Of a stretch of DNA of 64,000 nt, positions 6,771 to 60,280 are shown piece after piece. Below the pieces are notes generated by a model. The model searched no databases. It was not told where the DNA came from and was given only the letters and a program-made list of their open reading frames with translations. The DNA comes from Phyllobates terribilis. Taxonomy: Eukaryota. Numbering within the stretch: position 1 is the stretch's first letter; every line of letters starts with the position of its first letter. Location: positions 16,430,001 to 16,494,000 of the forward strand of contig NW_027362765.1 of NCBI RefSeq assembly GCF_046119375.1, given 5' to 3'. A program made the translations under genes and the position numbers.

Positions 6771-7412
6771 CTATCTGCGACAAAAACAAGTATTGCACAT
6801 CCTCCAATCATGGAATAGGCATGTAGATCTACTTTATCAATATAAAAAATATGGGATGATGCCCCTCAATATATTCCATAATGGTCATATTTGACCCACA
6901 TTGCATAATTAAAGCTACACAAGGATCACACACTTGTTAGTTGCTAAATAGTATATGTGGGATATAACTGATAAGAAATAATTCTGATATAGAAGCTCAG
7001 ATATCTCGATGAAGTACAACACTATGTGAAACCCATTCACAGGGAACTGAGTATCAATGAATAGAGTATAAAATCCAAAGATGTAATCCAGAATGGGGCT
7101 GTATACACACAAAACAGGCATAGGAAATTTGCACATTGAGCCCCTCAGGGGCTAGTGAATCCAGTCTGGAAATCCACTCCCTTTGCTTTTTGAGTATACA
7201 TCTGTTATGATCACCTCCTCCCACATTGGGTTTAACCACCTCAATGATACAAAAGGAGATGTCTCCTGTTTCTCCTGGATGTACACTGTTCATGTGTTCC
7301 ACTAATGGGGTGTCCCGACCATTGCGTGAATCACCAAAATGCTCCCCCACCCTCCTCCTAGACTCCCTCTTGGTCTTGCCTACATAGTCTAGGGGGCAGG
7401 TGCATGAGATCA
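6771..7412 (-). pseudogene. Penelope-like element, GIY-YIG endonuclease end and 3' region
   Basis: MISCTCPLDYVGKTKRESRRRVGEH...EWISRLDSLAPEGLN in ORF 7054-7677. Confidence 0.85.
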
Positions 7413-7676
7413 TACACTGCTCAAAAAAAATAGAGGGAACACTCAAATAACACATCCTAGATCTGAATGAATGACATATTCTCATTGAATACTTTGTTCT
7501 GTACAAAGTTGAATGAGCTGACAACAAAATCACACAAAAATCATCAATGGAAATCAAATTTATCAACCAATGGAGGCCTGGATTTGGAGTCACCCCCAAA
7601 ATTAAAGTGGAAAAACACACTACAGGCTGATCCAACTTTGATGTTATGGCCTTAAAACAAGTCAAAATGAGGCTCA

Positions 7677-8521
7677 TTATTGTGTGTGGCCTCCACGTGC
7701 CTGTATGACCTCCCTACAACGCCTGGGCATGCTCCTGATGAGGGTGCGGATGGTCTCCTGTGGGATCTCTTCCCAGACCTGGACTAAAGCATCCGCCAAC
7801 TCCTGGACAGTCTGTGGTGCAACGTGACGTTGGTGAATGGAGCGAGACATGATGTCCCAGATGTGCTCAATCAGATTCAGGTATGGGGAATGGGTGGGCC
7901 AGTCCATAGCTTCTATGCCTTCATCTTGCAGGAACTGCTGACACACTCCAGCCACGAGGTCTGGCATCGTCCTGCATTAGGAGGAACCCAGGGCCAACCG
8001 CACCTGCATATGGTCTCACAAGGGGTCTGAGGATCTCACCTCGGTACCCAATGCCAATCAAGCTACCTCTGGCGAGCACATGGAGGGCTGTGTGGCCCTC
8101 CAAAGAAATGCCACCCCACACTATTACTAATCTACTGCCAAACCGGTCATGCTAAAGGATGTTGCAGGCAACTGATCGCTCTCCACGGCGTCTCCAGACT
8201 CTGTCACATCTGTCACATGTGCTCAGTGTGAACCTGCTTTCATCTGTGAAGAGCACAGGGCGCCAGTGGAGACTTTGCCAATCCTGGTGTTCTGTGGCAA
8301 ATGCCAAGCGTCCTGCACGGTGTTGTGCTGTAAGCACGACCTCCATCTGTGGACGTCGGGCCCTCATACCACCCTCATGGAGTCGATTTCTAACTCTTTG
8401 TGCAGACACATGCACATTCGTGGCATGCTGGAGGTCATTTTGCAGGGCCCTGGCAGTGCTCCTCCTATGCCTCCTTGCACAAAGGCGGAGGTAGCAGCCC
8501 TTCTGCTGGGTTGTTGCCCTT
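7677..8521 (-). pseudogene. Tc1 transposase C-terminal two thirds (N-terminus lies at about 14251-14420)
   Basis: ORF pieces 8152-8586, 7921-8121, 7677-7967 in different frames. Confidence 0.9.
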
Positions 8522-8748
8522 CTATGTGTAACATCCCTGGCGGCGTGCTTGCATAGTGCACCACCTCCCACCATGCAAGATCGCAATCTTACCTGTCAGT
8601 CCATGCTGCACTCTTTGCTCCATTACTTGCTGTGTCCATGTCTCTTGTCTGATTGCTTAGGGCGTCGGCACGGCTTTCTGCTTGTTTCTTATAGCTACTG
8701 TGTGCACAGTCCTAATGCGTCCCCAGCCTATTGCTGTGAGTCACTGGA

Positions 8749-8788
8749 TACTTAAACCCCCTCCACCCAGTAGGAGGTGCCTGAGCAA
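8749..8788 (+). promoter_or_regulatory. LTR TATA-like box (TACTTAAA) and predicted transcription start / self-primer GCCTGAGCAA
   Basis: 8779-8788 lies 30 nt after the TATA-like box and is the exact reverse complement of the PBS 10623-10632. Confidence 0.7.
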
Positions 8789-9285
8789 CACTTTCTCTCA
8801 GTTTGTCCTTTGCAACTGAATTGCCAGGTCCTGTCCTGTATCTAGTCTGTTCCGCCACCCTGAGGGCTGTATACCCAGGCCTGTTACCTGTCTGTTCTGC
8901 CACCCTGGGGGCTGTATACCCACGCCTGTTACCTGTCTGTTTCCGCCACCCTGGGGGCTGAGTTCCCAGGCTCGTTTCTGTATCTTGTTTCTGTTTCAGT
9001 TCCTGTCTGAACAGTGTCCTAGCCCGTTTCTTGTTTGTTTCCATGTTTGTACCTTCCCTTTTCCTGCAGTGTCTGAACCTGCACCTAACTCCAACTCCTT
9101 GTCTCTGTACTTCTATTTGTGAGTTTTGTGTCCACTCGCTACTTCATTGTAAGTACCTTGTGTGTATCTGGTTCTGCGCGTTCTGTTTCCCTGCCTCCGT
9201 ATTTACCTCCTGTGTTCTAGCTATCTTCCTGTATCTTCCAGTCTGTTCCATGTGAACAGAGCCCTGTCCTGTCTGCCTTCACCTT

Positions 9286-10190
9286 CTGCTCTGCTTGTTC
9301 ACCGCTCCGGCGGTTCCGCACTGCTCCGCTTGTTTACTGCACCTGCGGTTCCGCTCTGCTCCGCTTGTTCACTGCACATGCGGTTTTGCTCCGCTTGTTC
9401 ACTGCACATGCGGTTTTGCTCCGCTCTGTTTGTTCACCACACCTGCGGTTTTGCTCCGCTCTGCTTGTTCACCGCACCTGCGGTTTTGCTCCGCTCTGCT
9501 TGTTCACTGCTCCTGCGGTTTTGCTCTGCTAGTCCACCGCAGAACAGAGCCCTGTCCTGTCTGCCTTCACCTTCTGCTCTGTTTTGCTTGCTCACCGCTC
9601 CAGCGGATCCGCTCTGCTCCGCTTGTTTACCGCACCTGCGGTTCCGATCTGCTCCGCTTGCTCACCGCTCCAATGGTTCCGCTCTGCTCCGCTTGTTTAC
9701 CGCACCTGCGGTTCCACTTTGCTCTGCTTGTTCACCGCTCCGGCGGTTCCGCTCTGCTCCGCTTGTTTACCGCACCTGCGATTCCACTCTGCTCTGCTTG
9801 TTTATCGCACCTGCGGTTCCGCTCTGCTTGTTTACCGCTCTGGCGGTTCCGCTCTGCTCTGCTTGTTTACCGCTCCGGCGGTTCCGCTATGCTCCGCTTG
9901 TTTACCGCACCTGCGGTTCTGCTCTGCTCCGCTTGTTTACCGCACCTGCGGTTCTGCTCTGCTCCGCTTGTTTACTGCTCCGGTGATTCCGCTCTGCTCT
10001 GCTTGTTTACCGCTCCGGCGGTTCCACTCTGCTCTGCTTGTTCACCGCACCTGCGGTTTTGCTCCGCTCTGCTTGTTCACCGCGCCTGCGGTTTTGCTCC
10101 GCTCTGCTTGTTCACCACACCTGTGGTTTTGCTCCGCTCTGCTTGTTCACCGCTCCTGCGGTTTTGCTCTGCTAGTCCACCGCACCTGCA
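9286..10190. repeat. 35/30-bp tandem array in the 5' LTR with ACCGC-N4-GCGGT hairpin per unit
   Basis: Unit CTGCTCCGCTTGTTTACCGCACCTGCGGTTCCGCT. Confidence 0.92.
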
Positions 10191-10584
10191 GCTCTGTTCC
10201 TGTATCCAAGTCTGTACTGGTCCCTATCCAGCCTGCGTTCATACCTGCCAGTATCTGCCTGTCTGCATTCCAGCTGTGCCTGTCAGCACCCACCTGTCTT
10301 CATACCAGCCGTGCCTGCTAGTACCCACCTGCCTTCATACCAGCCGTGCCTGCCAGTGCCCACCTGTCTGCATACCAGCTAACCTGCCTGTTCCTGCATT
10401 CCCCAGTGTGGGTCAACAGCTGTGACCGGGGTCTGACCTGGAGTAGCACCTGGTCCCTCTGCTCGGTTCCGCCCTGGTTCACGGAGTCGACTGAGCCGCT
10501 GTGTGACCTTGGTCGGATCGGGTTGATACTTAGTTACACCCCTCCAGGCACTCCTCGGTTCATGGTATAGTGGGATCACTAATC

Positions 10585-10632
10585 ACGCTCACGCCAGTCA
10601 GTCCGGGCGTGAGCGTAACAGTTTGCTCAGGC
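10585..10632 (+). promoter_or_regulatory. U5 stem-loop (11-bp perfect stem) plus non-tRNA primer-binding site
   Basis: ACGCTCACGCC/GGCGTGAGCGT at 10585-10616; TTGCTCAGGC 2 nt after the LTR end. Confidence 0.7.
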
Positions 10633-10831
10633 CATGGTTCCCGTTGAGCCCCACGGCTCTTCGCTCTCAGAGACATTTGAATCCTTGTCTGGCGAATACA
10701 TGCACTAAGAAAATTTTTTTTCTCAAGCTGAGGTTCAGGCGATTTACGCACCAGCCCAAATGGAGATATCAGCACTCGTTCCTGCGGATCCACCACGGTA
10801 CTATGGGGATCCAAAATGAAGCCGTGCATTT

Positions 10832-11720
10832 ATGGAGCAATGCATGCTGCATTTCAAATTCTATGCTCAATATTTTCCTACCGATTGGGTTAAAGTAGCA
10901 TTCATGATGTCCTACCTAGCGGGTGATGCCTTGAAATGGATCACCCCCCTATGGGAAGATTGGGATCCTATCGTCTCTGACCTGCAGGCCTTCCTGGTGG
11001 CCTTTCTAATGGTCTTCAATGACCCTAATCCTGAAGCTTCTGCTAAAGCTTCCCTTCCCAATATCCTGGAGCAGCCCCGATGGGTGATGTGTGTAGGTAG
11101 CCTACCAGTTCTCCAGCCTGAAGAGAATGCTGCCCACACAGAATGACAATGCTCCACAGAATACTTCCCTTCCCAACCTCAAGAGGCAGTCCAGACGTGG
11201 AAGGTGTAGAGGTAAACCGTCACGCCGCGTTCTGTCCTCCCAAAGACCTCCTGTTCCCCAGCCTGTGGAGGTAGCTATCCGCACAGAGTCCATGAAGGAT
11301 GACTATGTTCGTCAGGCAAAGCAGGGGCCAGAACTCAGTCACAAAGTCGGATTGCGGTCCCACTGCGGTTGTTTGGGACCCCCGGGCGGTCTTTGTCCAG
11401 CAAAGGTTGGAGAATCCCAAGACATTAGGCCTGTGGGAGAGGCTGCCCTTGGCCTTAGTGTTTCCTCTCCACAGATGACCATGACTGTCTCCGTGGCAAG
11501 TGAAGGCCTCGGATTAACCGGAAGTTTCGGGCTGAAAGCCTTGAAGCGTCGGTGTCTGATTCCCGTCCAACAACTCCAGAAGCTGATTTGGGCATTGTCA
11601 GCGTAAGGACGAGCCCTACTCAGAAACAGTCAAAATATGTCTGTACAAATTAAGCTCCAGATTGGAGCATTACACATGAAGAAGTTCACATTTCAGGTGC
11701 TGTCTGGTTTACCCACAGGT
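10832..11720 (+). pseudogene. gag: Degenerate gag (capsid-like, PEG10/RTL-type) with decayed zinc knuckle and protease remnant
   Basis: KVAFMMSYLAGDALKWITPLWE...FLVAFLMVFNDP; frameshifted downstream; no RT or IN. Confidence 0.75.
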
Positions 11721-13316
11721 CGTCCAGAGCTGAGAGATCTAGTGCCCGCTCAGGTCTGGAGATCCTGCATGGTGTTTCCTGGGGGACTGCTGAGGTGCAA
11801 GGGGTGTCCAGTCCCCATATCTTCAGGACAGTCAGCAGTTTCTTCTTCTTCTTCACCAGACCTGCTAGTCGCTGACTCGCTGTGCACTGAAGTCTCCGAA
11901 GGAAGGGAAGCGGAGGCATTGTCCCCACACAGTCTCGACGATTGTACCAATGATCTGGCTTTAGGCACCGCACCGCCTCGCAGACGTGTCATCTCAGAAA
12001 CCAGACTGAAGTTGGTCCCTAAGCAAGGATCCTCCATCTTTAACAAATCTGGCAATAAGTCCATCAAGGCGGTGGCTACCTCCAAGTCTCTGCACCCCTC
12101 CAACAAGACGGAGGATCTCCAGTTGCCTCCTGAATCCTCCGGGGTGCTATGATAACAAATGGAGAGAGACTTTTCTGCACCCTGTACCTGGTACTTCGCC
12201 CACTTCATCCAGTAAGCTTGGCAAAGTGTACGTCAAAGCGGTGGTTAACCCAGAGTCTCTGCACCCCTTCAACCAGGCGGAGGACTTCCAGTTGTCTCCT
12301 GAATCCTCCAGGGTGCTACCCGATATTAATAAGTGGAGAGAGACTTTCCTGTGTCCTGTTCCTGGTACCTCGCCCACCTCATTTGTTGCTGAGGATGGCC
12401 CGATGGAAGGAAGCATCCTAGTTACCAAGATGATGAGACCAGCTTTGTTCCCTCTAGTGGACAGAAGAGGAAATCTTCTTGACAAGGATCGGCCTCCAAA
12501 TTCTCTGCAGAAAATCCTTACTGGCTGGAGGAAGAGGGGGCGTAAAGGGGTGGGTACTGCAACATCCCTGGCGGCGTGCTTGCATGGTGCACCACCTCCC
12601 ACCATGCAAGATCGCAATCTTACCTGTCAGTCCATGCTGCACTCTTTGCTCCATTACCTGCTGTGTCCATGTCTCTTGTCTGATTGCTTAGGGAGTCGGC
12701 ATGGCTTTCTGCTTGTTTCTTATAGCTACTGTGTGCACAGTCCTAATGCGTCCCCAGCCTATTGCTGTGAGTCACTGGATACTTAAACCCCCTCCACCCA
12801 GTAGGAGGTGCCTGAGCAACACTTTCTCTCAGTTTATTCTTTGCAACTGAATAGCCAGGTCCTGTCCTGTATCTAGTCTGTTCCGCCACCCTGAGGGCTG
12901 TATACCCAGGCCTGTTACCTGTTTGTTCTGCCACCCTGGGGGCTGTATACCCAGGCCTGTTACCTGTCTGTTTCCGCCACCCTGGGGGCTGAGTTCCCAG
13001 GCTCATTTCTGTATCTTGTTTCTGTTTCAGTTCCTGTCTGAACAGTGTCCTAGCCTGTTTCTTGTTTGTTTCCATGTTTGTACCTTCCCTTTTCCTGCAG
13101 TGTCTGAACCTGCACCTAACTCCAACTCGTTGTCTCTGTACTTCTGTTTGTGAGTTTCGTGTCCACTTGCTACTTCATTGTAAGTACCTTGGGTGTATCT
13201 GGTTCTGTGCGTTCTGTTTCCCTTCCTCCGTATTTACCTCCTGTGTTCTAGCTATCTTCCTTTATCTTCCAGTCTGTTTCATGTGAACAGACCCCTGTCC
13301 TGTCTGCCTTCACCTT

Positions 13317-13825
13317 CTGCTCGGTTCTGCTTGCTCACAGCTCCGGAGGTTCCGCTCTTCTCCGCTTGTTTACCGCACCGGCGGTTCCGCTTTGCTCCGC
13401 TTGTTTACCGCACTGGCGGTTCCGCTCTGCTCTGCTTGCTCATCGCTCAGGCGGTTCCGCTTTGCTCCGCTTGTTTACCGCACCTGCGGTCCCACTCTGC
13501 TCTGCTTGTTTACCGCACCTGCGGTTCCGCTCTGCTCTGCTTGTTTACCGCTCCGGCGGTTCTGCTCTGCTCGGCTTGTTTACCGCTCCGGCGGTTCCGC
13601 ACTGCTCCGCTTGTTCACCGCACCTGCGGTTTTGCTCCGCTCTGCTTGTTCACCGCACCTGCGGTTTTGCTCTGCTTGTTCACCGCACCTGCGGTTTTGC
13701 TCTGCTTGTTCACCGCACCTGCGGTTTTGCTCCGCTCTGCTTGTTCACCGCACCCGCGGTTTTGCTCCGCTCTGCTTGTTCACCGCTCCTGCGGTTTTGC
13801 TCTGCTAGTCCACCGCACCTGCGGC
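13317..13825. repeat. 35/30-bp hairpin array in the 3' LTR (shorter allele)
   Basis: Same unit as 9286-10190; accounts for most of the 406-bp LTR length difference. Confidence 0.92.
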
Positions 13826-14713
13826 TCTGTTCCTGTATCCCAGTCTGTACTGGTCCCTATCCAGCCTATGTTCATACCTGCCAGTATCTGCATTCCAGCC
13901 GTGCCTGTCAGCACCCGCCTGTCTTCATACCAGCCGTGCCTGCTAGTACCCACCTGCCTTCATACCAGCCGTGCCTGCCAGTGTCCACCTGTCTGCATAC
14001 CAGCTAACCTGCCTGTTCCTGCATTCCCCGGTGTGGGTCAACAGCTGTGACCGGGGTCTGACCTGGACTAGCACCTGGTCCCTCTGCTCGGTTCCTCCCT
14101 GGTTCATGGAGTCGACTGAGCCGCCGTGTGACCTTGGTCGGATCGGGTTGATTCTTAGTTACGCCCATCCAAGCACTCCTCGGTTCATGGTACAGTGGGA
14201 TCACTAATCACGCTCATGCCAGTCAGTCCGGGCGCAAGCGTAACACTATGGCCCCCTCCATGTCTGATGGTATACTGGCCTGACTCCTGGTAGCGCCTCC
14301 AGCCTCTGGACTCTACGCTGACGGACACAGCAAACCTTCTTGCCACAGCTCACATTGATGTGCCATCCTGGATGAGCTGCACTACCAGAGCAACTTCTGT
14401 AGAGTCCGTCTCATGCTACCATGAGTGTGAAACCACAACCAACATTCAAAAGTGACTAAAACATCAGCCAGAAAGCATTGGTACTGAGATGTGGTCTGTG
14501 GTCCCCACCTGCAGAAAAACTCCTTTATTGAGTGTGTCTTGATAATTGCCAATAATTTCCATCTATAGTCTATTCCATTTGCACAACAGCATGTGAAATT
14601 GATTGTCAATCAGTGTTGCTTCCTAAGTGGTCAGTTTGATTTCACAGAAGTTTGATTTACTTGGAGTTCTATTCTGTTGTTTTAGTGTTCCCTTTATTTT
14701 TTTCAGCAGTGTA

Positions 14714-15785: not shown

Positions 15786-15803
15786 TGGTACTTTTGGGAA
15801 AAT

Positions 15804-16230
15804 TATACTGTGTGGGGGCTTCACACATACTGCATAAGGGACATAATGGGGGCATTACACTGTGTGGGGGCATCATACACACTGCATAAGGGGCATATGG
15901 GGGCATTACACTGTGTGGGGGCATCATACATCCTGCATAAGGGGCATAATGGGGGCATTACACTGTGTGGGGCATCATACATACTGCATAAGGGGCATAT
16001 GGGGGCATTACACTGTGTGGGGGCATCATACACACTGTATAAGGGGCATAATGGGGGCATTACACTGTGTGGGGGGCATCATACACACTGTATAAGGGGC
16101 ATAATGGGGGCATTACACTGTGTGGGGGCATCATATATCCTGCATAAGGGGCATAATGGGGGCCTTACACTGTGTGGGGGTATCATACATCCTGCATAAG
16201 GGGCATAATGGGGGCATTACACTGTGGGGG
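15804..16230. repeat. About 52-bp G-rich minisatellite (GGGGCATTACACTGTGTGGGGGCATCATACATACTGCATAAGGGGCATAATG)
   Basis: About 8 units; paralog at 59308-59885. Confidence 0.93.
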
Positions 16231-16615: not shown

Positions 16616-18817
16616 GCAGAGTCGTGTGTGTACGAGGTGTACGGAGCGGAGCCGCGCGTGTACGAGGTGTACGGAGCGGAGCCGCGCGTGTACGAGGCGT
16701 ACGGAGCGGAGGCGCGCGTGTACGAGGCGTACGGAGCGGAGGCGCGCGTGTACGAGGCGTACGGAGCGGAGGCGCGCGTGTACGAGGCGTACGGAGCGGA
16801 GGCGCGCGTGTACGAGGCGTACGGAGCGGAGGCGCGCGTGTACGAGGCGTACGGAGCGGAGGCGCGCGTGTACGAGGCGTACGGAGCGGAGGCGCGCGTG
16901 TACGAGGCGTACGGAGCGGAGGCGCGCGTGTACGAGGCGTACGGAGCGGAGGCGCGCGTGTACGAGGCGTACGGAGCGGAGGCGCGCGTGTACGAGGCGT
17001 ACGGAGCGGAGCCGCGCGTGTACGAGGCGTACGGAGCGGAGCCGCGCGTGTACGAGGCGTACGGAGCGGAGCCGCGCGTGTACGAGGCGTACGGAGCGGA
17101 GCCGCGCGTGTACGAGGCGTACGGAGCAGAGCCGCGCGTGTACGAGGTGTGCGGAGCCGCGTGTGTGCGAGGTGTACGGAGCCGAGCGGCGTGTGTACGA
17201 GGCGTACGGAGCCGAGCGGCGTGTGTACGAGGCGTACGGAGCGGAGGCGCGCGTGTACGAGGCGTACGGAGCGGAGGCGCGCGTGTACGAGGCGTACGGA
17301 GCGGAGGCGCGCGTGTACGAGGCGTACGGAGCGGAGGCGCGCGTGTACGAGGCGTACGGAGCGGAGCCGCGCGTGTACGAGGCGTACGGAGCGGAGCCGC
17401 GCGTGTACGAGGCGTACGGAGCGGAGCCGCGCGTGTACGAGGCGTACGGAGCGGAGCCGCGCGTGTACGAGGCGTACGGAGCAGAGCCGCGCGTGTACGA
17501 GGTGTGCGGAGCCGCGTGTGTGCGAGGTGTACGGAGCCGAGCGGCGTGTGTACGAGGCGTACGGAGCCGAGCGGCGTGTGTACGAGGCGTACGGAGCCGA
17601 GCGGCATGTGTACGAGGAGTACGGAGCAGAGCGGCGTGTGTACGAGGCATACGGAGCAGAGCGGCGTGTGTACGAGGCGTACGGAGCGGAGCGGCGTGTG
17701 TACGAGGCGTACGGGGTGGAGCCGCGCGTGTACGAGGTGTACGGAGCGGAGCCGCGCGTGTACGAGGTGTACGGACCGCAGCCGCATGTGTAAGAGGTGA
17801 GCGGAGCCGCGTGTGTACGAGGTGTACGGAGCGGAGCCGCGTGTGTGCGAGGTGTACGGAGCCGAGCGGTGTGTGTACGAGGCGTACGGAGCCGAGCGGC
17901 GTGTGTACGAGGCGTACGGAGCAGAGCGGCGTGTGTACGAGGCGTACGGAGCAGAGCGGTGTGTGTACGAGGCGTACGGAGCAGAGCCGCGTGTGTGCGA
18001 GGCGTACGGAGCAGAGCCGCGTGTGTGCGAGGCGTACGGAGGCGAGCGGCGTGTGTACGAGGCGTACGGAGCCGAGCGGCGTGTGTACGAGGCGTACGGA
18101 GCAGAGCGGCGTGTGTACGAGGCGTACGGAGCAGAGCCGCGTGTGTACGAGGCGTACGGAGCAGAGCCGCGTGTGTACGAGGCGTACGGAGCGGAGCCGC
18201 GCGTGTACGAGGTGTACGGACCGGAGCCGCATGTGTACGAGGTGAGCGGAGCCGCGTGTGTACGAGGTGTACGGAGCGGAGCCGCGTGTGTGCGAGGCGT
18301 ACGGAGCCGAGCGGCGTGTGTACGAGGCGTACGGAGCAGAGCGGCGTGTGTACGAGGCGTACGGAGCAGAGCGGCGCGTGTACGAGGCGTACGGAGCAGA
18401 GCGGCGCGTGTACGAGGCGTACGGAGCAGAGCGGCGCGTGTACGAGGCATACGGAGCGGAGTCGCGCGTGTACGAGGCGTACGGAGCGGAGCCGCGCGTG
18501 TATGAGGCGTACGGAGCGGAGCCGCGCGTGTACGAGGTGTACGGAGCGGAGCCGCGCGTGTACGAGGCGTACGGAGCGGAGCCGCGCGTGTACGAGGCGT
18601 GCGGAGCCGTGTGTGTACGAGGTGTACGGAGCGGAGCCGCGCGTGTACGAGGTGAACGGAGCAGAGCCGCGTGTGTACGAGGTGTATGGAGCAGAGCCGC
18701 GTGTGTACGAGGCGTACGGAGCAGAGCCATGTGTGTACGAGGTGTACGGAGTCGAGCAGCGTGTGTACGAGGTGTACGGAGTGGAGCCGCGCGTGTAGGA
18801 GGTGTACGGAGTGGAGC
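16616..18817. repeat. CpG-dense 30-bp satellite, about 73 units
   Basis: Unit GAGCCGCGTGTGTACGAGGCGTACGGAGCG and variants. Confidence 0.97.
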
Positions 18818-18824
18818 CCCCTTT

Positions 18825-23229: not shown

Positions 23230-26200
23230 TCAAGAATCTTGGTTATGAAAAAATGCTTTAACTTCCGGCCATGCAGACCACCGTTGTTGGGTCTTATCTT
23301 TTTTTGAAACGTCCCATGACAGAATCATTTCATAGGAATTATATAAATCGACTCTCCACCAGATGTCATCCGTTGATGGAGCAGAGTGGGATTTCCACTT
23401 AGAGGCAAGGGCTAGTCTGGCCGCAGTTAATATAAAAGAACAGAGCCATCTATTCTTGTACGGGAGGTCGGTAATGCCTATGTTCAGTAAAGCTAATGCT
23501 GGATTCATTGGGATGTCAGTTCCAGCACAGTATGATAACATCTTATATACCTCCTTCCAAAAGCTATTTAATTTAGAGCAAGACCACCAAGAATGCAAGA
23601 GTGTGCCTGTTTCTCTACAATTTTTCCAACATAAAGGGGATGCTCCCTGGGATAGGTGAGCTATACGGTTTGGGGGTAAATACCAACGGAGTTGGATTTT
23701 TTTTTGCAATTTCTAGGTAGTTTATGCATGACGAACCTTTAATGGGCCAAGACAGAGCTAATTGCCACTGTTCATACGTGAACTAAGTGCCCAAATCTGA
23801 TTCCCATTTAACCATGTACGGGAGCTTAGCATTGTCAGAGGGAGAATTGAGATAATTATATGCTACCGAGACACCCCTGGAGAATCCCCTCTTCCCCAAG
23901 ATAAAATGTTGTATTGTGGATGGAGCCAGTCAAGACATAATTGCTGGAGAAGAGGATAAAAAACTCTTCAGTTGAATATAGGAAAAGAGAAGATTGCCGG
24001 GGAGTTGATAAATGGAAGAAAGTTCATCAAACGTTTTGATAGAACTAGCTGAAAACATAAGACTGCAAATTAGGAATGCCATGATCTTCCCAAAGATGGA
24101 ATTGGGAGAATGGGACCACCAAATCAACGCTCCTAAATGAGATATATTTCAACGGAATATGTATAATCCTTTTAAAAATCAACTCTCTCCACATTTTAAG
24201 AGCGTGTATCATTGTAGGGAGAGAACAAGATTGAGACCCCGGGATCAGAAATTCCGCTTCCAATATAAATCTAGTAGAATGAAGTTTAGTGTCCGATTTT
24301 TCCATTTGAACCCAGGAGAGATTGGACTTAGCGTCCCACCACTCTCTAAGAGAATCAATCGTGCATGCTTTATAGTAGAGGTGCATATTCGGTAGTCCAA
24401 AACCTCCCTCTCCCATTCTATAAAACAGCAAAGAGCTCTGGAATCTGTTTTTTTTGCCACCCCAAATAAAACGAAATAGTAGAGCTTGGATTTCGTCTAG
24501 TTATTTTGTATGGGAAGTGGTATACATCTTAAAAGATATAGAATTTTAGGTAAAAATGTCATTTTACATGTTTGTATACGGGCCATCCAAGAAAATTCTA
24601 AAGTGCTCAGTCTTTTGAGTTCTGGTTTGATAGAATTTAGTAATTCTGAAATATTTTTAGAGACTAAATTTTTAGAGGGGGATACTAGGTGAATTCCCAG
24701 GTAGAGAATTGAGTTTTTAGCCCACGTAAATGGCAGAATTATTTTTAAATCAGAAATTAATCTAGAGGGACAGCCAATCGGGAGGGCCATTGATTTTGTA
24801 GAGTTCAATTTGTAGAGAGATACTTCTGAGAACTGAGAGAGAATGGATAGCAGTGCTCGGAGGGAGGTTTCGGGGTGTGTTACAGAAATAATTACATCAT
24901 CTGCATACAGACCAACTGGGTGGGCTACGGATCCTATTTTTATTCCAGAAATATCTTCACAAGTACGAATCCTCTGCGCCAAGGGCTCCATTATCAATGC
25001 AAAAATTGTAGGTGACAACGGACACCCCTGGCGAGTTCCATTCGAGATGTGAAACCGTTTTGAGCTAAAGCCAGCTGCTAATACTTTCGCACTCGGGGAG
25101 GAATACAATGCCATTATATCCTTTTGTATGTGTCCAATGAACCCAAATTTAGTCAAGACTGCTTGAAGATATCCCCAGTGTACTCGATCAAACGCTTTTT
25201 CTGCGTCCAGCGAAACGAGCACACTGGGGACTTCAGATTTTTCTGCTCTATGGATCAAGTTTAGAACACGTCGAGTGGCATCTCTAGTTTGTCTCCCCGG
25301 TACAAAACCCATTTGATCCGGCGCTATCAGTTGAGGAAGGACCGAATTAATTCTTTGAGCTAGGATCTTAGAGTACAATTTAAGATCACAATTCAGTAGT
25401 GAGATAGGTCAGAAGTTCTCAGGTTTATTTGGGGGTTTGCCTGGTTTTGGAAGGGTAACTATAGTCGCTTCCAAGAATAATGGATTAATTTTACCCTTGA
25501 TTCTCCAGTCCAAAAATAATCGCTGTAAGTACGGGGATAACTGCTCCGAAAGCAGTTTATAAAATTCATTAGCAAAGCCATCTGGCCCTGGAGTGGAATT
25601 TAGAAGCTTTAATTGCACTTATTATTTCTCCAACCTGTATAGGTGAGTTCAAAGATTCAAGTTGGGATTGTGAGATTTTGGGTAAATCAATAGGTTTTAA
25701 AAATTGTTCTATATGTGGAGTCGAGGGATGTCGGATGGCATGATCCGTATTCAGATTATATAACTGAGAGTAATAGTCCGCAAATGTGTTGGCAATTTCT
25801 GTTGGGTCATAAATTTTGTCCCCATTCGGCTGAAGCAAATGGTCAATCCTCCCCTTAGCAGTCAGTTTTATCACTCTACAGGCTAATATGGCGCTTGCTC
25901 TATCCCCCAAAGCATAGTATTTTGCTTTAACACGTTTTAAATTATGCTCATAATTAAATAACAGGAGTTTCCGAAGATCATTTCTGCTTTCTAACAAAGC
26001 GCTATTAATTGCCGGAGTCTTTTGTTTCGGGTTATTTTCCAAGATTTTAATTTTATTTATGACTGATTGCACTTCGCATTCTCTGCGTTTCTTTTCTCGT
26101 GAGGCCAATTTTATACATAAACCTCTCATAAAAGCTTTTCGTGATAGCCATAAAGTCTCGTCGGAAACTTCTCCATTGTCATTAATTTCAAGAAAATGTT

Positions 26201-26988
26201 TCAGTTCCTTAGAGAGATATTCCCTATTATGAGCAGATTTTAACAGAAGTGTTCAAGCACCAAGTAAACGCAGAGGATGGAGCGCCGCCATCAGCGAGTT
26301 CTAATATAATTGGGGCATGATCGGACCAGGTTATTGAACCTATATGTGAGGATTTACATAGTGATAAAGCTGTTCTATTTACTAAGAAATAATCTGTTCG
26401 AGAAAGATATGAAAACCTAGGAGAAAAGAACGTATAGTCCCTTTCGTTGGCATGGTGGTATCTCCAAACATCATGGAGAGCTTCTTCTGCTATAATTCAT
26501 TTTAGATCCTCCCGACCCGTAGCTCGATCCGAGTCCGTGTCTAAATCTCTAGATATAGGGGCGTTGAAGTCTCCACAAATTATCAATGGTCCCTGACAAA
26601 TGGAGTGAATTTTTTTAAGAACTTTAGAGAAGAAAATTTGGGGTTTGTTATTAGGGCTATATAAGGTCACAATCGTGTATTGGGAGTTATTTAGTAGACA
26701 AGATAGGACTGTGTATCTCCCTCTGGGGTCAGTATAAAGGGACAACATGGAATATGATATGGTATGTTTTATGAGTATTGCAACACCCGCTTTTTTATGT
26801 GGAGCATTGGCTTGAATTATTGTGGGGAAGTGAATATTGGATAATCTGGATGCATCTTGGGGAAGCAAATGAGTCTCTTGTAAACAAATAACTTCGCATT
26901 TAGATGACCCTATCTCTTTCCAAAGAAGAGACCTCTTAAAAGGGGAGTTTAAACCCCTCACATTAAAAGATAAGACCTTAATACCCAT
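23230..26988 (-). pseudogene. L1-A ORF2 (APE endonuclease, RT with YADD), multiply frameshifted
   Basis: VLSFNVRGLN, CLQETH, GDFN, LDAEKAFDRV, RQGCPLSP, LYADD spread over several ORF pieces. Confidence 0.92.
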
Positions 26989-27376
26989 GGCGGTGTATCA
27001 AAATTCTCAAATATGATCAGAGGGAAAAACATTTGTACGTCAATACATATTCCTGACATGGAGAAGGATAGAACAGTGCAATTCCGAGCATTTGGAGAAT
27101 AGGGACCCAGAGGGTGAGGGTTAATTAACCAGACATAAACATATCTAACAAAAAGGTAAAATAGAACAAAAAACACACATATGGAACAAATATTCAAATG
27201 ATAGCGAACCATCTGGATATACAGTGGGGGTATTTAAGGGATACGGACACAACAAGGAAGGACAACCGAAGTCATCAGGTCCGCACACCTGTGTCCAGGC
27301 CACAGGAGGAAACAGCAATTACAGAATCGGAAAATAGAGGTGGACTCCTAGAAAAAAAAAAAACAGGTTACAGACC

Positions 27377-28354
27377 TCAACGGTTTACAGTAATCCAATC
27401 AGTTGGAATTTTTTTATATTGTTGCTCTGGGGGAAGAGGTGAGACAAACCCCTCCGGAAGAAGCTTCCATTTGCCAAGTAGTTTTTCTGCATGCCGCGGT
27501 GACAGGCAGACCACCACATCATCATCCTTAATGATTAGCAGTTTGACCGGGTGTCCCCAGCGGTAGGGAATGCCGACGTTTCTTAAAATTGCTGTGTGAG
27601 GAGCAAATTCCTTACGTTTTGCTAAGGTAGCGGCTGATAAATCTTGAAAAATAGTGATCTCTTGAAACGGAGCCGATAGATCTGGTTTATCTCTGATGCC
27701 GCGTAAAAAAATTTCTTTGATGGTAAAAAAGTGAATCCTTGCTAGAGTATCTCTAGGCAGTGAGGGATTTACATGTTTAGGTTTGGGAACCCTGTGAATT
27801 CTGTCCACTACCAACTCAGAGTCAGATGGGTCTGGAAGTACAGACTGCAGCAGGTTGTGAAAAAATTGGGGCAAATCCGAATTTTTAACACTTTCTGGAA
27901 TCCCACGTAGTCTCATGTTATTCCTACGAGATCTGTCCTCTTGGTCCCCCATTATATTTCTGAGATATTCTGAGGAATCTTTTAATTCGTAGTATGCGTC
28001 AACCAGAGAATTGTGAGAGTCCGCAAAATCTACCAGTTTGTCCTCCAACCGTGAGGTACGCTCCTCCAGGTTTCTCACATCTTTTTTCAAGGCACTCACC
28101 ATTTGTTTCATGTCATCTTTTAAAGATTTACGCAGAGCGCTCAGTAACTCTTGCATAATGTTTTTAGTTAACGGAGCATCTGCAGTCCCTGGATCTTCTC
28201 CCATAGTTGAGCTTTCACGGGAGGAGCGACCCGAAGGTGGCGAGGAGTCCCGTTGTGTCTCACTCTGAATGGAAGTAGATTGTGCTGCTCCCCGTGAAAA
28301 AAATTCAGTCAGTTTAGTAGGTGACGCTGTTTTACGAGGTCTGCCTCTGGTCAT
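27377..28354 (-). CDS. L1-A ORF1p (coiled coil plus RRM), open 325-aa frame
   Basis: MTRGRPRK...RSRRNNMRLRGIPES...DRIHRV; no internal stops. Confidence 0.85.
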   Translation of the reverse strand: MTRGRPRKTASPTKLTEFFSRGAAQSTSIQSETQRDSSPPSGRSSRESSTMGEDPGTADAPLTKNIMQELLSALRKSLKDDMKQMVSALKKDVRNLEERTSRLEDKLVDFADSHNSLVDAYYELKDSSEYLRNIMGDQEDRSRRNNMRLRGIPESVKNSDLPQFFHNLLQSVLPDPSDSELVVDRIHRVPKPKHVNPSLPRDTLARIHFFTIKEIFLRGIRDKPDLSAPFQEITIFQDLSAATLAKRKEFAPHTAILRNVGIPYRWGHPVKLLIIKDDDVVVCLSPRHAEKLLGKWKLLPEGFVSPLPPEQQYKKIPTDWITVNR

Positions 28355-29899
28355 TTTTACTTTTATTAATGGGAACAAGATATAGAGTTATTAAGCTTAT
28401 TCTCTATTTTGAAGCATTAGCTTAGCTTCACTGTTCACTTTGAATAGAAATGCGTCGTGTCGCTTTTATAGAGGTCTGTGCAGTAGGAGTCACCTCATCT
28501 TGGGATCAGCATAATGAGGTTAGATACTGGACAAAGCCATGTCACTATATATTGGGAAAAAACTGGGAGTTTTCTGTTTTTCCCAAAAGTTCCAGCAGGT
28601 GGCAGTCTTGCAGTAGGCAACACTGGTGAAGATTCACATAGCAGTAGATTGGGAATTTACACCTGGGAACTATGTTTAGACAGCTTGTTAACTCCCTGTG
28701 GTATGGCAAAATGGCGGCCGTCTTTCTTATATGGAGATGGCGGGAACTTTTGGCGCCAAAAGATGGAGAGGCTTACAGTGCCGTTCCCGGTCAGTGTCCC
28801 GCTCTGCAAGCAAGGAGCAACAGGGGAGAGGAGGTCCAGGGGGCACCAGGGTAATCTCTCCCAAGAGTGGTGATCCTGCTCCCTCACTCCGGGCACGGTG
28901 CACTTCCTCCTCCAGCACCACAAGGCAAAGCGCGGCCTCAGGCTCTCCCACCCCCACCTCCCTCAAGCGAAGGCTCCGTTCTCTATTACCCCAGAGTTCA
29001 GCGGATTGGGTAAGGAGGACCGTAGCCGCGGGGTAGAAGGAGGGGAGAGGAGGGGTAAACTCACAAAGTCTCTTCCGTGATCCGACGGTCCCGCCACTTG
29101 CCACCTTCGGAGGAGCGCTACCACACCAGCAGTTCGGCCGCCGCGGCCCACCGACAGGAGATCTCATTCCTCCTCCACCCCACGCAGGTCTCCGGGTTCG
29201 AGTTCTCAAGCAGGTCACGTTCCTCCACAGCTCCCAGGCAGCGAGATGGGTAAGCAGAGAAGTTGAAATGCAGCCTTCTCTGTGTCCACACGCCGCTTGA
29301 TTCCACTGCGTTCCAGCTTAGATAGGGCCTAGGTTTCTTACGTCCGAACCACTGGGGTCTTTACGTTTTTCCTTCTCTCCTTATCCTTTAGTCTCTTGGC
29401 TCTGTGGGCACGGGACCCCTAAGGAACTTCTCAGGCCCCAAAAAAAAGATTTCCAGTTTGGAATTGTATATATAGATATATATAGCGCATAGGAACAGGT
29501 GTCTGCACGTCCTTTCCTGCCTGTGCCCAGGACACGCCCCCCTTACTTTTCTTTTTTAAATCAAATATTTTTTCATTGTTAAAACTCTTTTTGTAACACA
29601 ACAGCGAAACAAATAAAACAACCCAACCAAAGAAGGGACCCAGTCCCTATTCTGTCCCTCTCCCCACAACACATTGCCTTTTCAAACAAAACCTTTTGAG
29701 TTAAATGTTCCACAGTTCTGTCCACAGCAAATTAACAATCTTGCAGTATGAATAGTCACAATTGTATTAAGGGGTATCTAACTCTTGCTTTGGAGCAGTT
29801 GTATACGTGCCTAAAGCAGTCCAATGTAGGATTTTGCACCTGTCAAGTAATCTATACACCAATCATAGCAGACCAAGTCGAAATCTATGTAGTTCTCTG

Positions 29900-32800
29900 G
29901 ATGCTCGGCTGGAGCCGTCAATCCATGGAGCCCATATTTTTTCAAATTTGGAGATGGCCTTCCTTTTCAAATATATACTTTTTCACAGATTTAATAACCA
30001 ATTAATCTTATTTATAAATTCCGTCACTGTGGGCGCCTGCTCTGATAACCAATGTTGGGCTATTAGTTTCCTAGCCATGTATAACATGCGTGCCACCGCT
30101 ATTTTGCCATGTTCCTCAGTGCTTAGATCTTCTATATATGCCAGTATACATACTAATGGTGAGGGATCTGAATCGACTGAGTATGTTCTATCAATGATCG
30201 TTATTACATCCCTCCAGAAGTTTTCCAGAGCAGGGCAGGTCCACATCATATGAAGCATGTTAGCCGGGGATGTTTTACATCTAGCACATAGGGAGTCTGG
30301 TCGAAGCCCTATATCGTGGAGAAATTAGGGTGTTCTATATCAGGGTTCCCCAACTCCAGTCCTCAAGGCCCACCAACAGGTCATGTTTTCAGGATTTCCT
30401 TAGTATTGCACAGGTGATAATTCCATCATCAGCACAGGCAATAGTTACATCACCTGTGCAATACTAAGGAAATCCTGAAAACATGACCTGTTGGTGGGCC
30501 TTGAGGACTGGAGTTGGGGAACCCTGTTCTATATGACTGGTGTAGCACCTGTAAGTGGGAAAATCTATGGGACTCACTCAAGAGATAACTGGGGAACTCT
30601 TTCCAGTATTTCAGACCACAGCCCCTCTTCAATAGGGCCTATCAAGCCCTCCCATTTTTCTTTTGATCTTATGGGGTGTTTAGCTAATACTAGGTCCAGC
30701 AGACCCCTATAAAGCAATGAGATTAGCCCCCCAGAATTATGTGAGCTAGCCAATCTCTGTATTACAGCATTTTGAGGAACTCCGTTACTTAGGATAAGAC
30801 TCTCTGCCTGATATGCATGTCGTAACTGAAGGTACTTATAAAATTCGGTGTTGGGCAGTCCATATTCATTTTGTATCTGTGAAAACTCCTTGAATGAATC
30901 TCCCGCTAAAACATGAGTGAATCTTTCTAGTCCTTTTAGACTCCAATTTTTAAACCCTTCCAATTTATATAGGTTAGGGAGCAATGGTGTTTCCCACAGT
31001 GATGTAAATTGTGAGATCCCTTGTATCCCCTGTAATTTCCTCACTGCCCACCAAAGTTTGTGTATTAACAGCGTAGTTGGGGTTCTACAAGAGGGTGTCT
31101 TAAATTTGTGAGCCTCCAATGCTCCATAGAGTCTGAGTGATTTAAAATGTGATTGGAGTAGAAGACATTGAGCCCCCCTCCCCCTCCAGGGTCGTCCCAC
31201 CCACGAATGTGCTGGAGCTGAGCTGCCATATAATAAACCCACGGATTTGGGACAGCAAGGCCACCCATTGTTTTATCTCTTTGCAAAGTTTCCAGTTTAA
31301 TTCTTGGAGTTTGTTTTCCCCAGATTAAGTCCCTGAACATGCTGTTTACTTTAAGGAAATAACTCTGGGGAAGCCATATTGGAGAATTATGCAATACATA
31401 TAGCAATTGTGGCATCCAGATCATCTTGACCAAGTTAGTGCGGCCCACCACTGACAGTGGCAATTTAGACCACGTGTCCAGTTTACACTTGAATCTGGCC
31501 AGTATTGGGTTGAGATTTAGTTTCTCATAGTCAGTTGCTTTAGATGTTACATTAATACCCAAATATTTAAATTCATTGACCACTTGTAAGCCTGAGTCAG
31601 TATAGTGAGGTGCATTAATGTTCCCATTATCTATTGGAAGCAGTACCAACTTAGTACAATTAATCAGCAAACCCGAAAATTTCCCAAACTTCTCGATTGT
31701 CTCCATAGCTACAGATAATGTTTTGGAGGCTTCTGCTAAAAATAGTAGTGCATCGTCAGCATAAAGCGCAATTTTCTCCTCTATATTCCCTCTGCGAAAT
31801 CCCGTTATGCCAGGGTGCATCCTGATAGCCGCAGCTAGTGGTTCAATGGCCAGTGCAAACAGTAAAGGGGACAACGGGCAGCCCTGCCGGGTGCCCCTCC
31901 CCAGTTCAAAGGCTGAAGTAAGACGCCCATTTACCCTTAATCTTGTCAATGGCCTCTCATATAGTAGCTTGATCCATGAAATAAATGCAGCACCCATACC
32001 AAATTTCTCCAAAACTACCCATAGATATTTCCATTCAACAGAGTCAAATGCTTTAGCAGCGTCTAGCGAGCAAATAACCCTGTCTCCTGCATTGTCCACT
32101 GGCAGCTGAAGATTAAGAAATAGTCTATGGATATTAACGGCTGTAGACCTAGCTGGCATAAAGCCCGATTGATCACTATGTATAACATTAGATATTATGT
32201 TATTTAACCTGGAGGCCAGAACTTTTGCTATTATTTTAATGTCCGTAGGTAGCAGGGATATAGGCCTATAGGATTCGGGAAGCAATGGATCCTTACCCGG
32301 TTTGGGTATCACTACTATAACTGCTTCTCTCATTGAGAGTGGCAGAATGCCTTCCTTGGCTGCCTCCTGGAAGGTGCACAGCAATTGAGGTAGTAATATA
32401 TCCCCAAATTTCTTGTATATTTCCATAGGGAACCCGTCCAACCCTGGTGATTTATTATTGGCCATTGAAGCTGTGGCCATTTGTAACTCCTCTAATTGCA
32501 GGGGACTATTTAAGTATTTTTTTATCTGCTTCAGAGATAGCTGGAAGATCAATCCCCTCCAAATAAGTCAGGATTCGTTCTCTGCTAAACCCTGTTTTGG
32601 TTCTGTATAAGTCCTGATAAAATTCTCTGAAAGTATTTGATATTTGATCTGGCTGATTAACCATTGCACCTTCCTTATTTTTTAAAGCGCCTATAAAGGA
32701 TGTCCCTATTTGAGCCCTTGCAATCATAGACAGTAAATGCCCTGCCTTTTCCCCTTCTTCATAAAAATGTGTTTGGGAAAATAGTCGCTTATTCTTGTCT

Positions 32801-33858
32801 TCTCCCTAATGTGTGTAGAGTATGCCTCCTGCGCCTCTTTCCAGGTCATCAGGTCCTCCTCTGTACCTGATTGGACAAATTTATTTTCCGTGAGTCTAAC
32901 CCTGTCTTGCAAGAATTCCCCAAATTGGTTAGTTTTAGTTTTGGATCTATTTATAGCTGGTATCAGGACTCCCCTCAGACAGACCTTCATAGCGTCCCAT
33001 AGTGAGTTCTGCATCACAGAGCCGTTATTTTCTATAAAATAATTTTGAAGAGCTGATGTAATCAAATTTATGTCTATGATTTGCAACCAAAAGGGATTCC
33101 CGGACCATCTAGTAAGGGTAGCTTCCAATCTAGGCAAAAGGCATAGGCTCATCATCAGGGGTGAGTGGTCCGACAGTACTCTAGGTAAATATTCCACCCT
33201 TTCCACTAAAGGGAGAATGTGTTCTGTTCCCAGTACTAAATCTATGTGGGAGAGGGTGTTATGTGATTTAGAGTAGCAGGAGAATTGTTGTGTTTTGGGA
33301 TATTTAAGACGCCATATATCAGTCAAGGATAACTCTGACAAGAGCTCACCAAACTTAGTTATGGGGGTAGCCTCTGTAGCTGTGTCTGATCTGAATCTAT
33401 CCCAGTATGGGTGTACAATATTGTTAAAATCTCCCATGCATAGCACAGGGACCCCCGGTACTTTGTCTATGAGTGACTGACGCAATTTCCTTCATAATGA
33501 TATTATTATAGGGAAGGGGAATGTAGACTGCCACTAGTAATAATTCTTTGGTGAATATTCTACAATGAATCCCAATGAATCTGCCCTCCTCATCCACCTT
33601 AGCGGATATCAATTCAAAAGGGATAGATCTATGTACTAAAATACTGACGCCCCTCGAGTAACTTGAAAAGGTAGAATGAAAACTATGGCTGATCCATGAA
33701 CGCTTTAGGGCCGCTATATTACTTTTTTCTAGATGCGTTTCCTGCAGACATACCACTGCTGGTGAATTTCCCCGTATATATTCCATGACAGCCGTCCTCT
33801 TTAAGGGGTCTCCCAACCCTCTCACGTTCCAAGAAAGGAATTTTACTTGGTTAGCCAT
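29900..33858 (-). pseudogene. L1-B ORF2
   Basis: FLSWNVRGLG, LDAAKAFDSV, RQGCPLSP, LYADD, C-terminal cysteine-rich region interrupted by a MITE. Confidence 0.9.
30341..30526. mobile_element. 186-bp hAT-type MITE
   Basis: 78-bp perfect inverted arms; 8-bp TSD TTCTATAT (30333-30340, 30527-30534). Confidence 0.93.
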
Positions 33859-35544
33859 TAGGATATAACGCATAGGGGATGGACAGGATACGTATGACAA
33901 GCGTTAACATAACTCCGGTTCCCAAATACAAGGCTATGATAATACCCCCTTTTACATACAAGATCACTGTAATCCATACAGGTGGCAGAACTGCGTAGCA
34001 CAATCTATAAACATACAACTTACAAAAACATACAAACAGAAAAATACCGATCCATCCAGAAAAACCAGATGAATGGGGATACCAGTCCAACTCACATCCG
34101 CACATGAAGCAAGCGAACAACCTACAAAAAGAGAAAAATAAACGTTTCTTGGGAGCCTGCCATTTTAGGATAATAGACAGAATATCCATTTTCCACTGGG
34201 CCGTGGGTAACTTGGTAAGAATTATGACTCCAACAGTCAATCAGATATCTTCTGATGCACATGACTTAAGTTATACGTCTTCATTAAGCGTTGTGGGTTC
34301 TGGCGAAGTAGCTGTTCATTTAGATCAAGCCAGCGGAGTGCTTCCTTGGAATTTTCAAAAAAGGAGGTCGCTCCCAGGGCGGCCACTCTGAGTTTCGCCG
34401 GCTAAAGCATGGAATATGGTATTTGTAGCTGGCGTAGCCGACGTTTCACATCCACAAATTGTGCCCTGCGTTTTGACACTTCAATGGAGTAGTCAGGGAA
34501 AAAGGACACCTTTTGGCCGTTGACGGAGATGTCCCCTTAATCACAAGCTGCTTTAAGGATGTTGTCATGGTCCTTATAGTGGAGCAGCTTCATTAGGACT
34601 GGCCGCAGCGGGGCTCCGGGTAACAGCCGAGTAGGAACTCTGTGCGCCCTTTCCATAGCAAATAGAGGGGTCAGGTGTTCTGCCCCAAACAGGGAGAGCA
34701 GCCATTTCTCAAAATACTCAGTAGGGTTATTGCGCTCGGTTTTTTCAGGGATGCCAATAACCCTTATATTATTCCGCCTGAGTCTGTTCTCCAGATCGTC
34801 AGTTTTAGTTAGCAATGCCAGGATCTGTTGGTCATGTCTGTGATAGTCACTGATAATTTGGGGCTGTTTATCCTCCAAATCACTAATTCTCCCTTCAGCT
34901 GCTGTGGTGCGATCTGTGACTTTCTGCAGCCCCTGTCTCATATAGGAAAGTTCTTCCTTAATCTCACGCATTTGATTACTAAGTGAGGACAGGACAGATC
35001 CATACTGTGCAACAGCCATGAAAATATCCTTAATTGTAGGGTCTTCTGGGTTGAGAGAGTGCTGAAGGGGTTAACCTCTGGCCGAAGCTGCAGGCTGCTA
35101 TCTGAGGTGTCAGTGTTATCTGCATTGTCACATTCTCCTGAAAGAGCAGAGAAGCATTAGCCATCTCCCTCATCTGTGTCTGCACTGTATTACTCAAGGG
35201 GGCTGCTCTGTTTGTCCTAGCATAATTAGCTAGTTTAACTGTAGCGTTCATGGAAGTAGACTTGCCTGGTGCATCTAGGGATGTGGAAAGCTCCGGCCTC
35301 TCGGCGCCATCTTGAGATTGTCTGTCTGCTCCTGCAGTCACCTCACGGAGCCTTCTGCCTGCTTTCCCAGCCATAAAGAAACTCCTCTGTTGAGCACCGA
35401 TGGTTACAGGAGCTCAGAGGGAGATGTTATCTTTGGTTTTATTACTATTTAGGGCCCAGTGGAGACTTTTACAGGCTATTGCTCCTGGAGCTGATCTGTC
35501 CTGCGACCGCTCAGCCAAGCCACGCCCCAGATTTACTTTTCTTT

Positions 35545-59280: not shown

Positions 59281-59307
59281 CAGGACCTCAGGTGGTACTG
59301 TGGGAAC

Positions 59308-59885
59308 ATTATACCGTGTGGGGGCATCATACATACTGCATAAGGGGCATAATGGGGGCATTACACTGTGTGGGGGCATCATACATACTGCATAAGGGGC
59401 ATAATGGGGGCATTACACTGTGGGGGCATCATACATACTGCATAAGGGGCATAATGGGGGCATTACATGTGTAGGGGCATCATACATCCTGCATAAGGGG
59501 CATAATGGGGGCATTACACTGTGTGGGGGCATCATACATACTGCATAAGGGGCATAATGGGGGCATTACACTGTGTGGGGGCATCAAACATACTGCATAA
59601 GGGGCATAATGGGGGCATTACACTGTGTGGGGGCATCATACATACTGCATAAGGGGCATAATGGGGGCATTACACTGTGGGGGCATCACACATACTACAT
59701 AAGGGGCATAATGAGGGCATTACACTGTGTGGGGGCATCATACATACTGCATAAGGGGCATAATGGGGGCATTACACTGTGGGGGCATCATACATACTGT
59801 ATAAGGGGCATAATGGGGGCATTACACTGTGGGGGCATCACACATACTACATAAGTGGCATAATAGGGGCATTACACTGTGGGGC
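59308..59885. repeat. About 51-53 bp G-rich minisatellite, about 11 units
   Basis: Paralog of 15804-16230. Confidence 0.93.
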
Positions 59886-60234: not shown

Positions 60235-60280
60235 CTGAAGTTTATGTGTGGGGTCAGGAGGGGTTTACAGTGTGGATGTA

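Follow-up and report, generated by a model that had tools for sequence, protein, structure and literature searches.

Paired primer and primer binding site changes point to self-primed reverse transcription in a non-autonomous frog LTR retrotransposon family

In tRNA-primed Ty3/gypsy elements, the primer binding site (PBS) starts with TGG and is complementary to the 3′ end of a mature tRNA. This is not so for an LTR retrotransposon in a 64,000 nt stretch of the Phyllobates terribilis genome (contig NW_027362765.1, positions 16,430,001 to 16,494,000; termed the window), and the question arises what primes its reverse transcription. A preliminary description of the window had proposed that the element primes itself in the manner of Tf1 from fission yeast. 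From the sequences of this element and its relatives we consider it highly likely that the family uses the 10-base 5′ end of its own RNA, and not a tRNA, as the primer for reverse transcription.

The features of the window copy are listed in Table 1. Its LTRs are 95.4% identical and differ in length by about 400 nt, the 5′ LTR being the longer one, and its internal region is 1937 nt long. Comparison by tblastx with autonomous relatives revealed remnants of the protease, the RT N-terminus, and the chromodomain region; RT core, RNase H, and integrase were not detected in the internal region by this comparison. As the LTRs have diverged to this extent and gag is broken, the window copy is dead. 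When three further copies of the family were analysed by tblastn, nothing beyond gag was found in any of them. A gag-derived reading frame has been retained in some copies, and the long reading frame of the family had no match among solved structures. The element had initially been described as a non-autonomous LTR retrotransposon. By its remnants, it is a decayed, enzyme-less, non-autonomous derivative of a chromodomain-type Ty3/gypsy LTR retrotransposon. A Tc1-like transposase region with matches to DDE_3 and HTH_Tnp_Tc3_2 represents the left flank (window 7054-8592, minus strand), which makes it probable that the element has been inserted into a Tc1 element.

Table 1. Features of the retrotransposon copy in the window. 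Positions are those of the window.
Feature	Position	Strand	Remarks
5′ target-site duplication	8522-8526	+	CTATG
Whole element	8527-14245	+	LTR pair, polypurine tract, target-site duplication CTATG
5′ LTR	8527-10620	+	2094 nt, TGTAACA...CGTAACA
U3 (inferred)	8527-8778	+	252 nt
TATA-like box	8749-8756	+	TACTTAAA; 30 nt ahead of primer
Predicted self-primer	8779-8788	+	GCCTGAGCAA; would form RNA nt 1-10; G at +1, preceded by T at -1
R-U5 (inferred)	8779-10620	+	1842 nt, 11% A, without AATAAA-type hexamer
Three bases extending the duplex	8790-8792	+	onto 10620-10622 after a 1-nt bulge (folding prediction)
45-bp tandem array	8845-8971	+	in R-U5
35-bp minisatellite	9285-10173	+	about 25 copies; main source of loop length
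Second 35-bp array	10244-10379	+	region homologous to sister-clade LTRs, including full-pol L261
Possible U5 arm	10572-10578	+	GGGATCA; pairs with 10635-10641, weak in window copy
U5 hairpin	10585-10616	+	11 bp, arms 10585-10595/10606-10616
PBS	10623-10632	+	TTGCTCAGGC; reverse complement of 8779-8788; lacks complementarity to a tRNA CCA end
Internal region	10634-12557	+	remnants: broken gag (DUF4939), protease, RT N-terminal, chromodomain
Polypurine tract	12530-12554	+	precedes 3′ LTR
3′ LTR	12558-14245	+	1688 nt
Second primer copy	12810-12819	+	within 3′ LTR
3′ target-site duplication	14246-14250	+	CTATG

The PBS begins 2 nt past the LTR-terminal CA at position 10620. It does not start with TGG, the nearest TGG being located 14 nt downstream of the LTR. 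It had been claimed that the PBS is the perfect reverse complement of a 10-mer within the LTR and that this 10-mer starts 30 nt after a TATA-like box, and we found all coordinates and sequences to be correct. The TATA-like pattern that was used occurs at only 2 sites in the 2094 nt LTR, and the primer lies 30 nt behind one of them. Dinucleotide shuffling of the LTR of the window copy alone gave a perfect chance match of at least 10 nt at offsets 0-4 in 33 of 5000 trials.

Elements from the genome were then compared, with LTR ends set by the LTR pair, the polypurine tract, and the target-site duplication (TSD). By these means, 31 of 81 loci could be used and 50 were excluded. Among the 31 TSD-verified elements, which represent a handful of related families and thus do not count as independent events, 29 show a perfect reverse-complementary match of 10-11 nt starting 1-2 nt past the LTR; the matches of the remaining two have 8 and 9 nt. 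In controls, such a match was found for 2 of 930 internal positions and for none of 31 flanks. There are 8 primer types (GCCTGAGCAA, GCCTGAGCAT, GCCCGAGCAA, GCCTGAGTAT, GCTAGAGTAT, GCTTGAGTAT, GCTTGTGTAT, and GCTTCTGAAT), each with its own PBS. Paired changes of primer and PBS affect 6 of the 10 positions (3, 4, 5, 6, 8, and 10), so that the two 10-mers covary across related families. In 17 of 21 lineage representatives, the primer is located 30-32 nt behind a TATA-like box and has a T/G start, with T at -1. No TATA-spaced primer was found in the other four representatives, which are decayed or had been chosen on a mutated PBS.

One set of loci was initially contrary to self-priming. Most of the 30 loci that had been selected on the PBS of the window copy carry a primer with one mismatch. 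It was forecast beforehand that the true PBS of these loci holds a CpG, and this was borne out. The CpG-type PBS TTGCTCGGGC has 19,295 matches versus 641, and the primer GCCCGAGCAA, which matches this PBS, occurs in 29 of the 30 loci. The C-A mismatch in L200-L229 was thus rejected as a real exception; the search pattern had caught PBSs that suffered CpG decay. In the sister subfamily, the PBS ATGCTCAGGC is paired with the primer GCCTGAGCAT in 19 of the first 20 matches listed, a count made with a relaxed TATA filter; the stricter filter missed most sister-type primers. For the window type, TTGCTCAGGC is paired with GCCTGAGCAA in 15 of the first 20 matches listed, with one other letter in a single case and no primer found in four. 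One 3′ LTR site among the window-type copies has a T in place of A at position 10.

It was considered whether the PBS TTGCTCAAGC represents a separate family within the window clade, but this was rejected, with only 29 scattered matches. These PBSs are point mutants, since the primer is unchanged where it is in range (4 loci). The only 10-mer that matches TTGCTCAAGC (L174/L268) is outside the TATA spacing. Three near-identical copies (L330-L332), which are probably segmental duplicates, have a short deletion after the TATA-like box that removes the primer site, and their PBS is changed.

The exact junction of LTR end, PBS, and gag has 1,908 matches for the window type and 8,710 for the closest sister type. 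Complete pol and chromodomain are present in a sister clade that shares this junction, and the junction type most frequent in that clade has 19,295 matches. In the complete-pol, chromodomain sister elements, primer and PBS are the same or differ by one pair; in one of them, L261, both are the same as in the window copy. Two distant relatives (L072, L084) show the Ty3/gypsy order PR-RT-RH-IN-SH3_Tf2-1-Chromo, and a PEG10-like capsid match was obtained in more distant relatives. The first 20 DUF4939 loci are mostly decayed or rearranged. According to PMC4131045, chromodomains in frogs are reported in Amn-san elements only, and Amn-san is described as a member of the Tf1/Sushi-related V-clade (PMC6317226). 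The V-clade represents the vertebrate Tf1/sushi group and also includes Sushi-ichi. On the basis of the chromodomain, the PEG10 capsid match, and PMC4131045, the window family probably belongs with the Tf1/sushi group.

The paired changes, together with the descent from chromodomain Ty3/gypsy elements, support the view that priming is Tf1-like. By analogy with Tf1, Pol II would start transcription at G8779, and RNA nucleotides 1-10 would anneal to the PBS, closing a loop of 1-2 kb. RT/RNase H, provided by an autonomous relative, would cut after about nt 10, and the freed 10-mer would prime minus-strand strong-stop DNA of R-U5 length. Plus-strand synthesis would then copy the primer back into the PBS, and for this reason the two 10-mers would change together. 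When the whole predicted leader of 1.89 kb was folded, pair probabilities for the primer:PBS duplex were 0.82-1.0. The minimum-energy fold shows this duplex in only 12 of 21 leaders.

The primer could also be the same 10-mer but be taken, as a rule, from a second co-packaged RNA, so that priming occurs in trans and loop length is irrelevant. This fits with leader lengths that range widely, from about 200 to 2900 nt, and with two young non-autonomous copies that have the PBS of the abundant autonomous family while their own primer is kept. However, such helper-type PBSs are rare (2 versus about 8,700), so that priming by helper RNA would be at most occasional, and the duplex in cis is predicted to form even over 1.8-2.9 kb. 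Genome data do not distinguish cis priming from priming by a sibling RNA that stems from the same family. We regard priming in trans as the usual route as rather improbable.

The two exceptional copies, L321 (G000:C1:382548071, plus strand) and L328 (G000:C5:559103846, minus strand), are young and of the sister type, and their PBS is that of the autonomous family with 19,295 matches. Their own primer GCCTGAGCAT, U5, spacer, and gag start have been kept. The U5 is 98-100% identical to that of 8 of the 9 sister copies compared and about 54% identical to that of the helper. The two copies fall into different sublineages. In non-autonomous families, a G at the seventh PBS position has 13 matches, and only these two carry both helper-type changes. 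Even when any non-A at both PBS positions is allowed (9 combinations), only L321 and L328 are found genome-wide. As a rough estimate, based on 8 single changes at one site and none in 100 at the other among the matches listed, fewer than 0.1 copies with the double change are expected from independent point changes.

If the primer of a helper is sometimes used, the passenger should gain the helper's PBS. In our view it is as likely as not that, in these non-autonomous elements with kilobase leaders, a co-packaged helper RNA now and then supplies its 10-nt 5′ primer and thereby overwrites the PBS of the passenger, so that self-priming would not always be intramolecular. This reading is weakened by the small number of such copies (two), by older intermediates that combine features (L162), and by the mismatch that the helper primer would have at its 3′ end. 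For Tf1, about half of the particle cDNA is described as carrying the PBS, copied into single-stranded DNA, at its end (PMC11042837), which is consistent with a primer that is copied back into the PBS. If helper priming does occur, L321 and L328 would be its traces in the genome: they would identify the helper family, set the primer length to 10 nt, and show that the PBS is templated by the RNA primer in a vertebrate.

A further alternative accepts that the pairing is real but assigns it to folding, packaging, or translation control, with transcription starting elsewhere and the primer being made otherwise. In its favour, the start site at the primer is a predicted one, part of the clade has a hairpin that extends across it, and in several families the gag AUG can lie within a U5 stem. 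On the other hand, the pairing sits exactly at the priming position, 1-2 nt past the LTR, it is 10-11 nt long as in Tf1, and its distance of 30-32 nt from the TATA-like box is fixed in 17 of 21 representatives. This alternative is thus very unlikely.

The structures beside the PBS were analysed in the same set of elements. The 11 bp U5 stem, reported as perfect and directly before the PBS, is present in the window copy but is not conserved. It is perfect (11/11) in 6 of 29 close copies, 10/11 being the commonest state (13 of 29), and a strong U5 hairpin occurs in only 3 of 21 lineage representatives. Within this hairpin, the sister type has a T-A to A-T change. The hairpin and the 3 bp extension of the duplex are predicted for the window copy and in only part of the clade. 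Stems between U5 and leader have a mean energy of -16.5 kcal/mol for own pairs versus -14.1 kcal/mol for swapped pairs (permutation p 0.00015), in a test on 21 representatives that are related and thus not independent. The U5-leader stem of the window copy ranks 10th of 21 and has a probability of 0.0 in the whole-leader fold. In L071, L060, L180, L187, and L230, a U5 stem of 7-9 bp lies over the gag start, with letters that differ by family; it resembles retroviral U5:AUG pairing.

The hairpin across the predicted start is located between TATA-like box and primer (window 8753-8781) and also occurs in L260-L263 and L175. It is strong in the autonomous sister clade, where it has 9 bp and covers the first 3 primer bases. 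Its sequence is different in L175, and it is absent from more distant families.

Priming by a host tRNA or a tRNA fragment, with an incidental match in the LTR, is extremely unlikely, although the comparison set, which includes tRNA halves, spans tRNA-Lys(TTT) genes alone, the sole type returned by the genome search. The PBS lacks TGG, its best pairing with tRNA-Lys(TTT) has 8 nt including G-U pairs and is internal, at offset 3, and eight PBS types that each match their own LTR are not expected under tRNA priming.

The length of the leader raises the question whether the loop represents an intron, or has expanded only after insertion, and is missing from the RNA which is reverse transcribed. 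A donor-like GTAAGT at 9149 and, near 10405, an AG resembling an acceptor are present in the 5′ LTR of the window copy, which is longer than its own 3′ LTR. However, the acceptor-like AG is a minority variant due to CpG decay, most copies having CGG there. Furthermore, of 17 young, TSD-bounded sister copies, 12 have LTRs of equal length (1283-2140 nt) with 99.6-100% identity, so that the long form must have been copied. This largely refutes the alternative, and an intron through the arrays was rejected; either version is extremely unlikely. To judge from these LTR pairs, leaders of 1.0-1.9 kb really replicate.

We return to self-priming across a long leader. In the window copy, tandem arrays account for 1152 of the 1842 nt of R-U5 (63%), and the loop is long because A-poor tandem arrays have expanded in R-U5. 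The R-U5 of the non-autonomous family has only 10-14% A. The loop had been given as about 1.8 kb. Long loops are real in the young relatives, but as the 5′ LTR exceeds the 3′ LTR by about 400 nt, 1.84 kb may be too high for the window copy at insertion, the 3′ LTR indicating about 1.44 kb. The primer-to-PBS distance is 883-2564 nt (median 1525) in the window type, being measurable in 16 of the first 20 matches, and 1033-1890 nt (median 1577) in the sister type (19 of the first 20 matches). It amounts to 675-1063 nt in the autonomous sister clade and to about 200-880 nt in more distant families. The longest distance, 2.9 kb, is found in one older copy. U3 had been described as only about 250 bp; this holds for the window copy, but such a short U3 is normal for the clade, as it has 117-282 nt throughout. 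AATAAA or ATTAAA was found in R-U5 of none of the 31 TSD-verified elements and none of the 17 young sister LTR pairs.

Changes in LTR length were also seen elsewhere. In three independent insertions (L184, L185, L186), the 5′/3′ LTRs have 592/790, 603/799, and 1079/792 nt, the difference in each case being made up of complete units of about 195 bp. At L047:3001-7671, LTR tail, PBS, and gag start occur as four head-to-tail repeats with a period of about 1122 nt.

Self-priming has been established for Tf1 (PMC7175516, PMC4600332, PMC5341516), which is described as requiring three duplexes, the 'pretzel' (PMC10085805). PMC10085805 and PMC6317226 present self-priming as a shared trait of the Tf1/sushi group, from its yeast to its vertebrate members. 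For vertebrate members it is described there as inferred from sequence, the bench demonstration being that for fission-yeast Tf1, and the signature is not present in every relative according to PMC2864245. Predictions of self-priming for individual elements, which may be relevant to loop lengths, are listed in the supplements of PMC6317226.

As described for Tf1 and Tf2 from Schizosaccharomyces pombe and Tj1 from S. japonicus, the PBS of the window family is located just past the 5′ LTR and is complementary to the predicted 5′ end of the RNA. Both Tf1 and the window family are from a chromodomain lineage, the primer having 11 nt in Tf1 as described and 10 nt here. Candidates for the side duplexes of Tf1 lie beside the PBS and are weak or patchy here. 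Unlike Tf1, Tf2, and Tj1, the family has a vertebrate host and is non-autonomous, its mechanism is read from sequence alone, and its primer-to-PBS distance is typically 1.0-1.9 kb and consists largely of tandem arrays. The LTR ends fit the Sushi motifs as published, TGTYANR (with one mismatch) and CNTNACA. The LTRs of fish Sushi elements likewise have a TATA-like stretch early, and they have a clear AATAAA late (PMC3601003). With a training length of about 570 nt, the Sushi LTR model described in this source places AATAAA close to the 3′ end, whereas in the window family AATAAA and ATTAAA are absent from R-U5 and the LTRs have 1.0-3.1 kb.

Non-autonomous LTR derivatives of the LARD type borrow enzymes from autonomous relatives. 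The likeness of the window family to them includes long LTRs, the retention of PBS, polypurine tract, and LTR ends, the loss of pol, and a high copy number. The family differs by a gag-derived frame in some copies and by a primer that would be self-made, so that no host tRNA would be needed.

The core mechanism of self-priming is already known for the Tf1/sushi group. Amphibian elements are reportedly covered by Butler et al. 2001 on vertebrate members. Among the mostly non-subscription papers that were searched, none dealt with self-priming of frog elements, with self-priming loops of kilobase length, or with a helper RNA as the source of the primer. Less ordinary are the kilobase minisatellite leader, the absent poly(A) signal, and the two copies with a helper PBS, and we consider the family a modest variant. 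It provides comparative support on a large scale in a vertebrate, as copies number in the tens of thousands and eight types of primer are each matched by their PBS. Self-priming would tolerate a spacer of 1-2 kb, and strong-stop DNA would therefore be about that long. Elements that are primed in this way would escape control by host tRNA fragments. The primer of each family would represent a barcode, and rare PBS swaps could show which autonomous family mobilises which passenger.

Several other features are found in the window. Broken LINE (L1-like) pieces at 24497-35070 (minus strand) include two RT matches, endonuclease matches, and an ORF1-like coiled coil, and an array of about 10 C2H2 zinc fingers is located at 38770-39969 (minus strand). 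There are GC-rich 30-bp satellite arrays at 16628-18818 and 60280-64000. Each is preceded by a 52-bp array (15802-16230 and 59307-59881), which indicates a duplicated block. A degenerate, AACCCT-rich telomere-like repeat occurs at 46909-47158.
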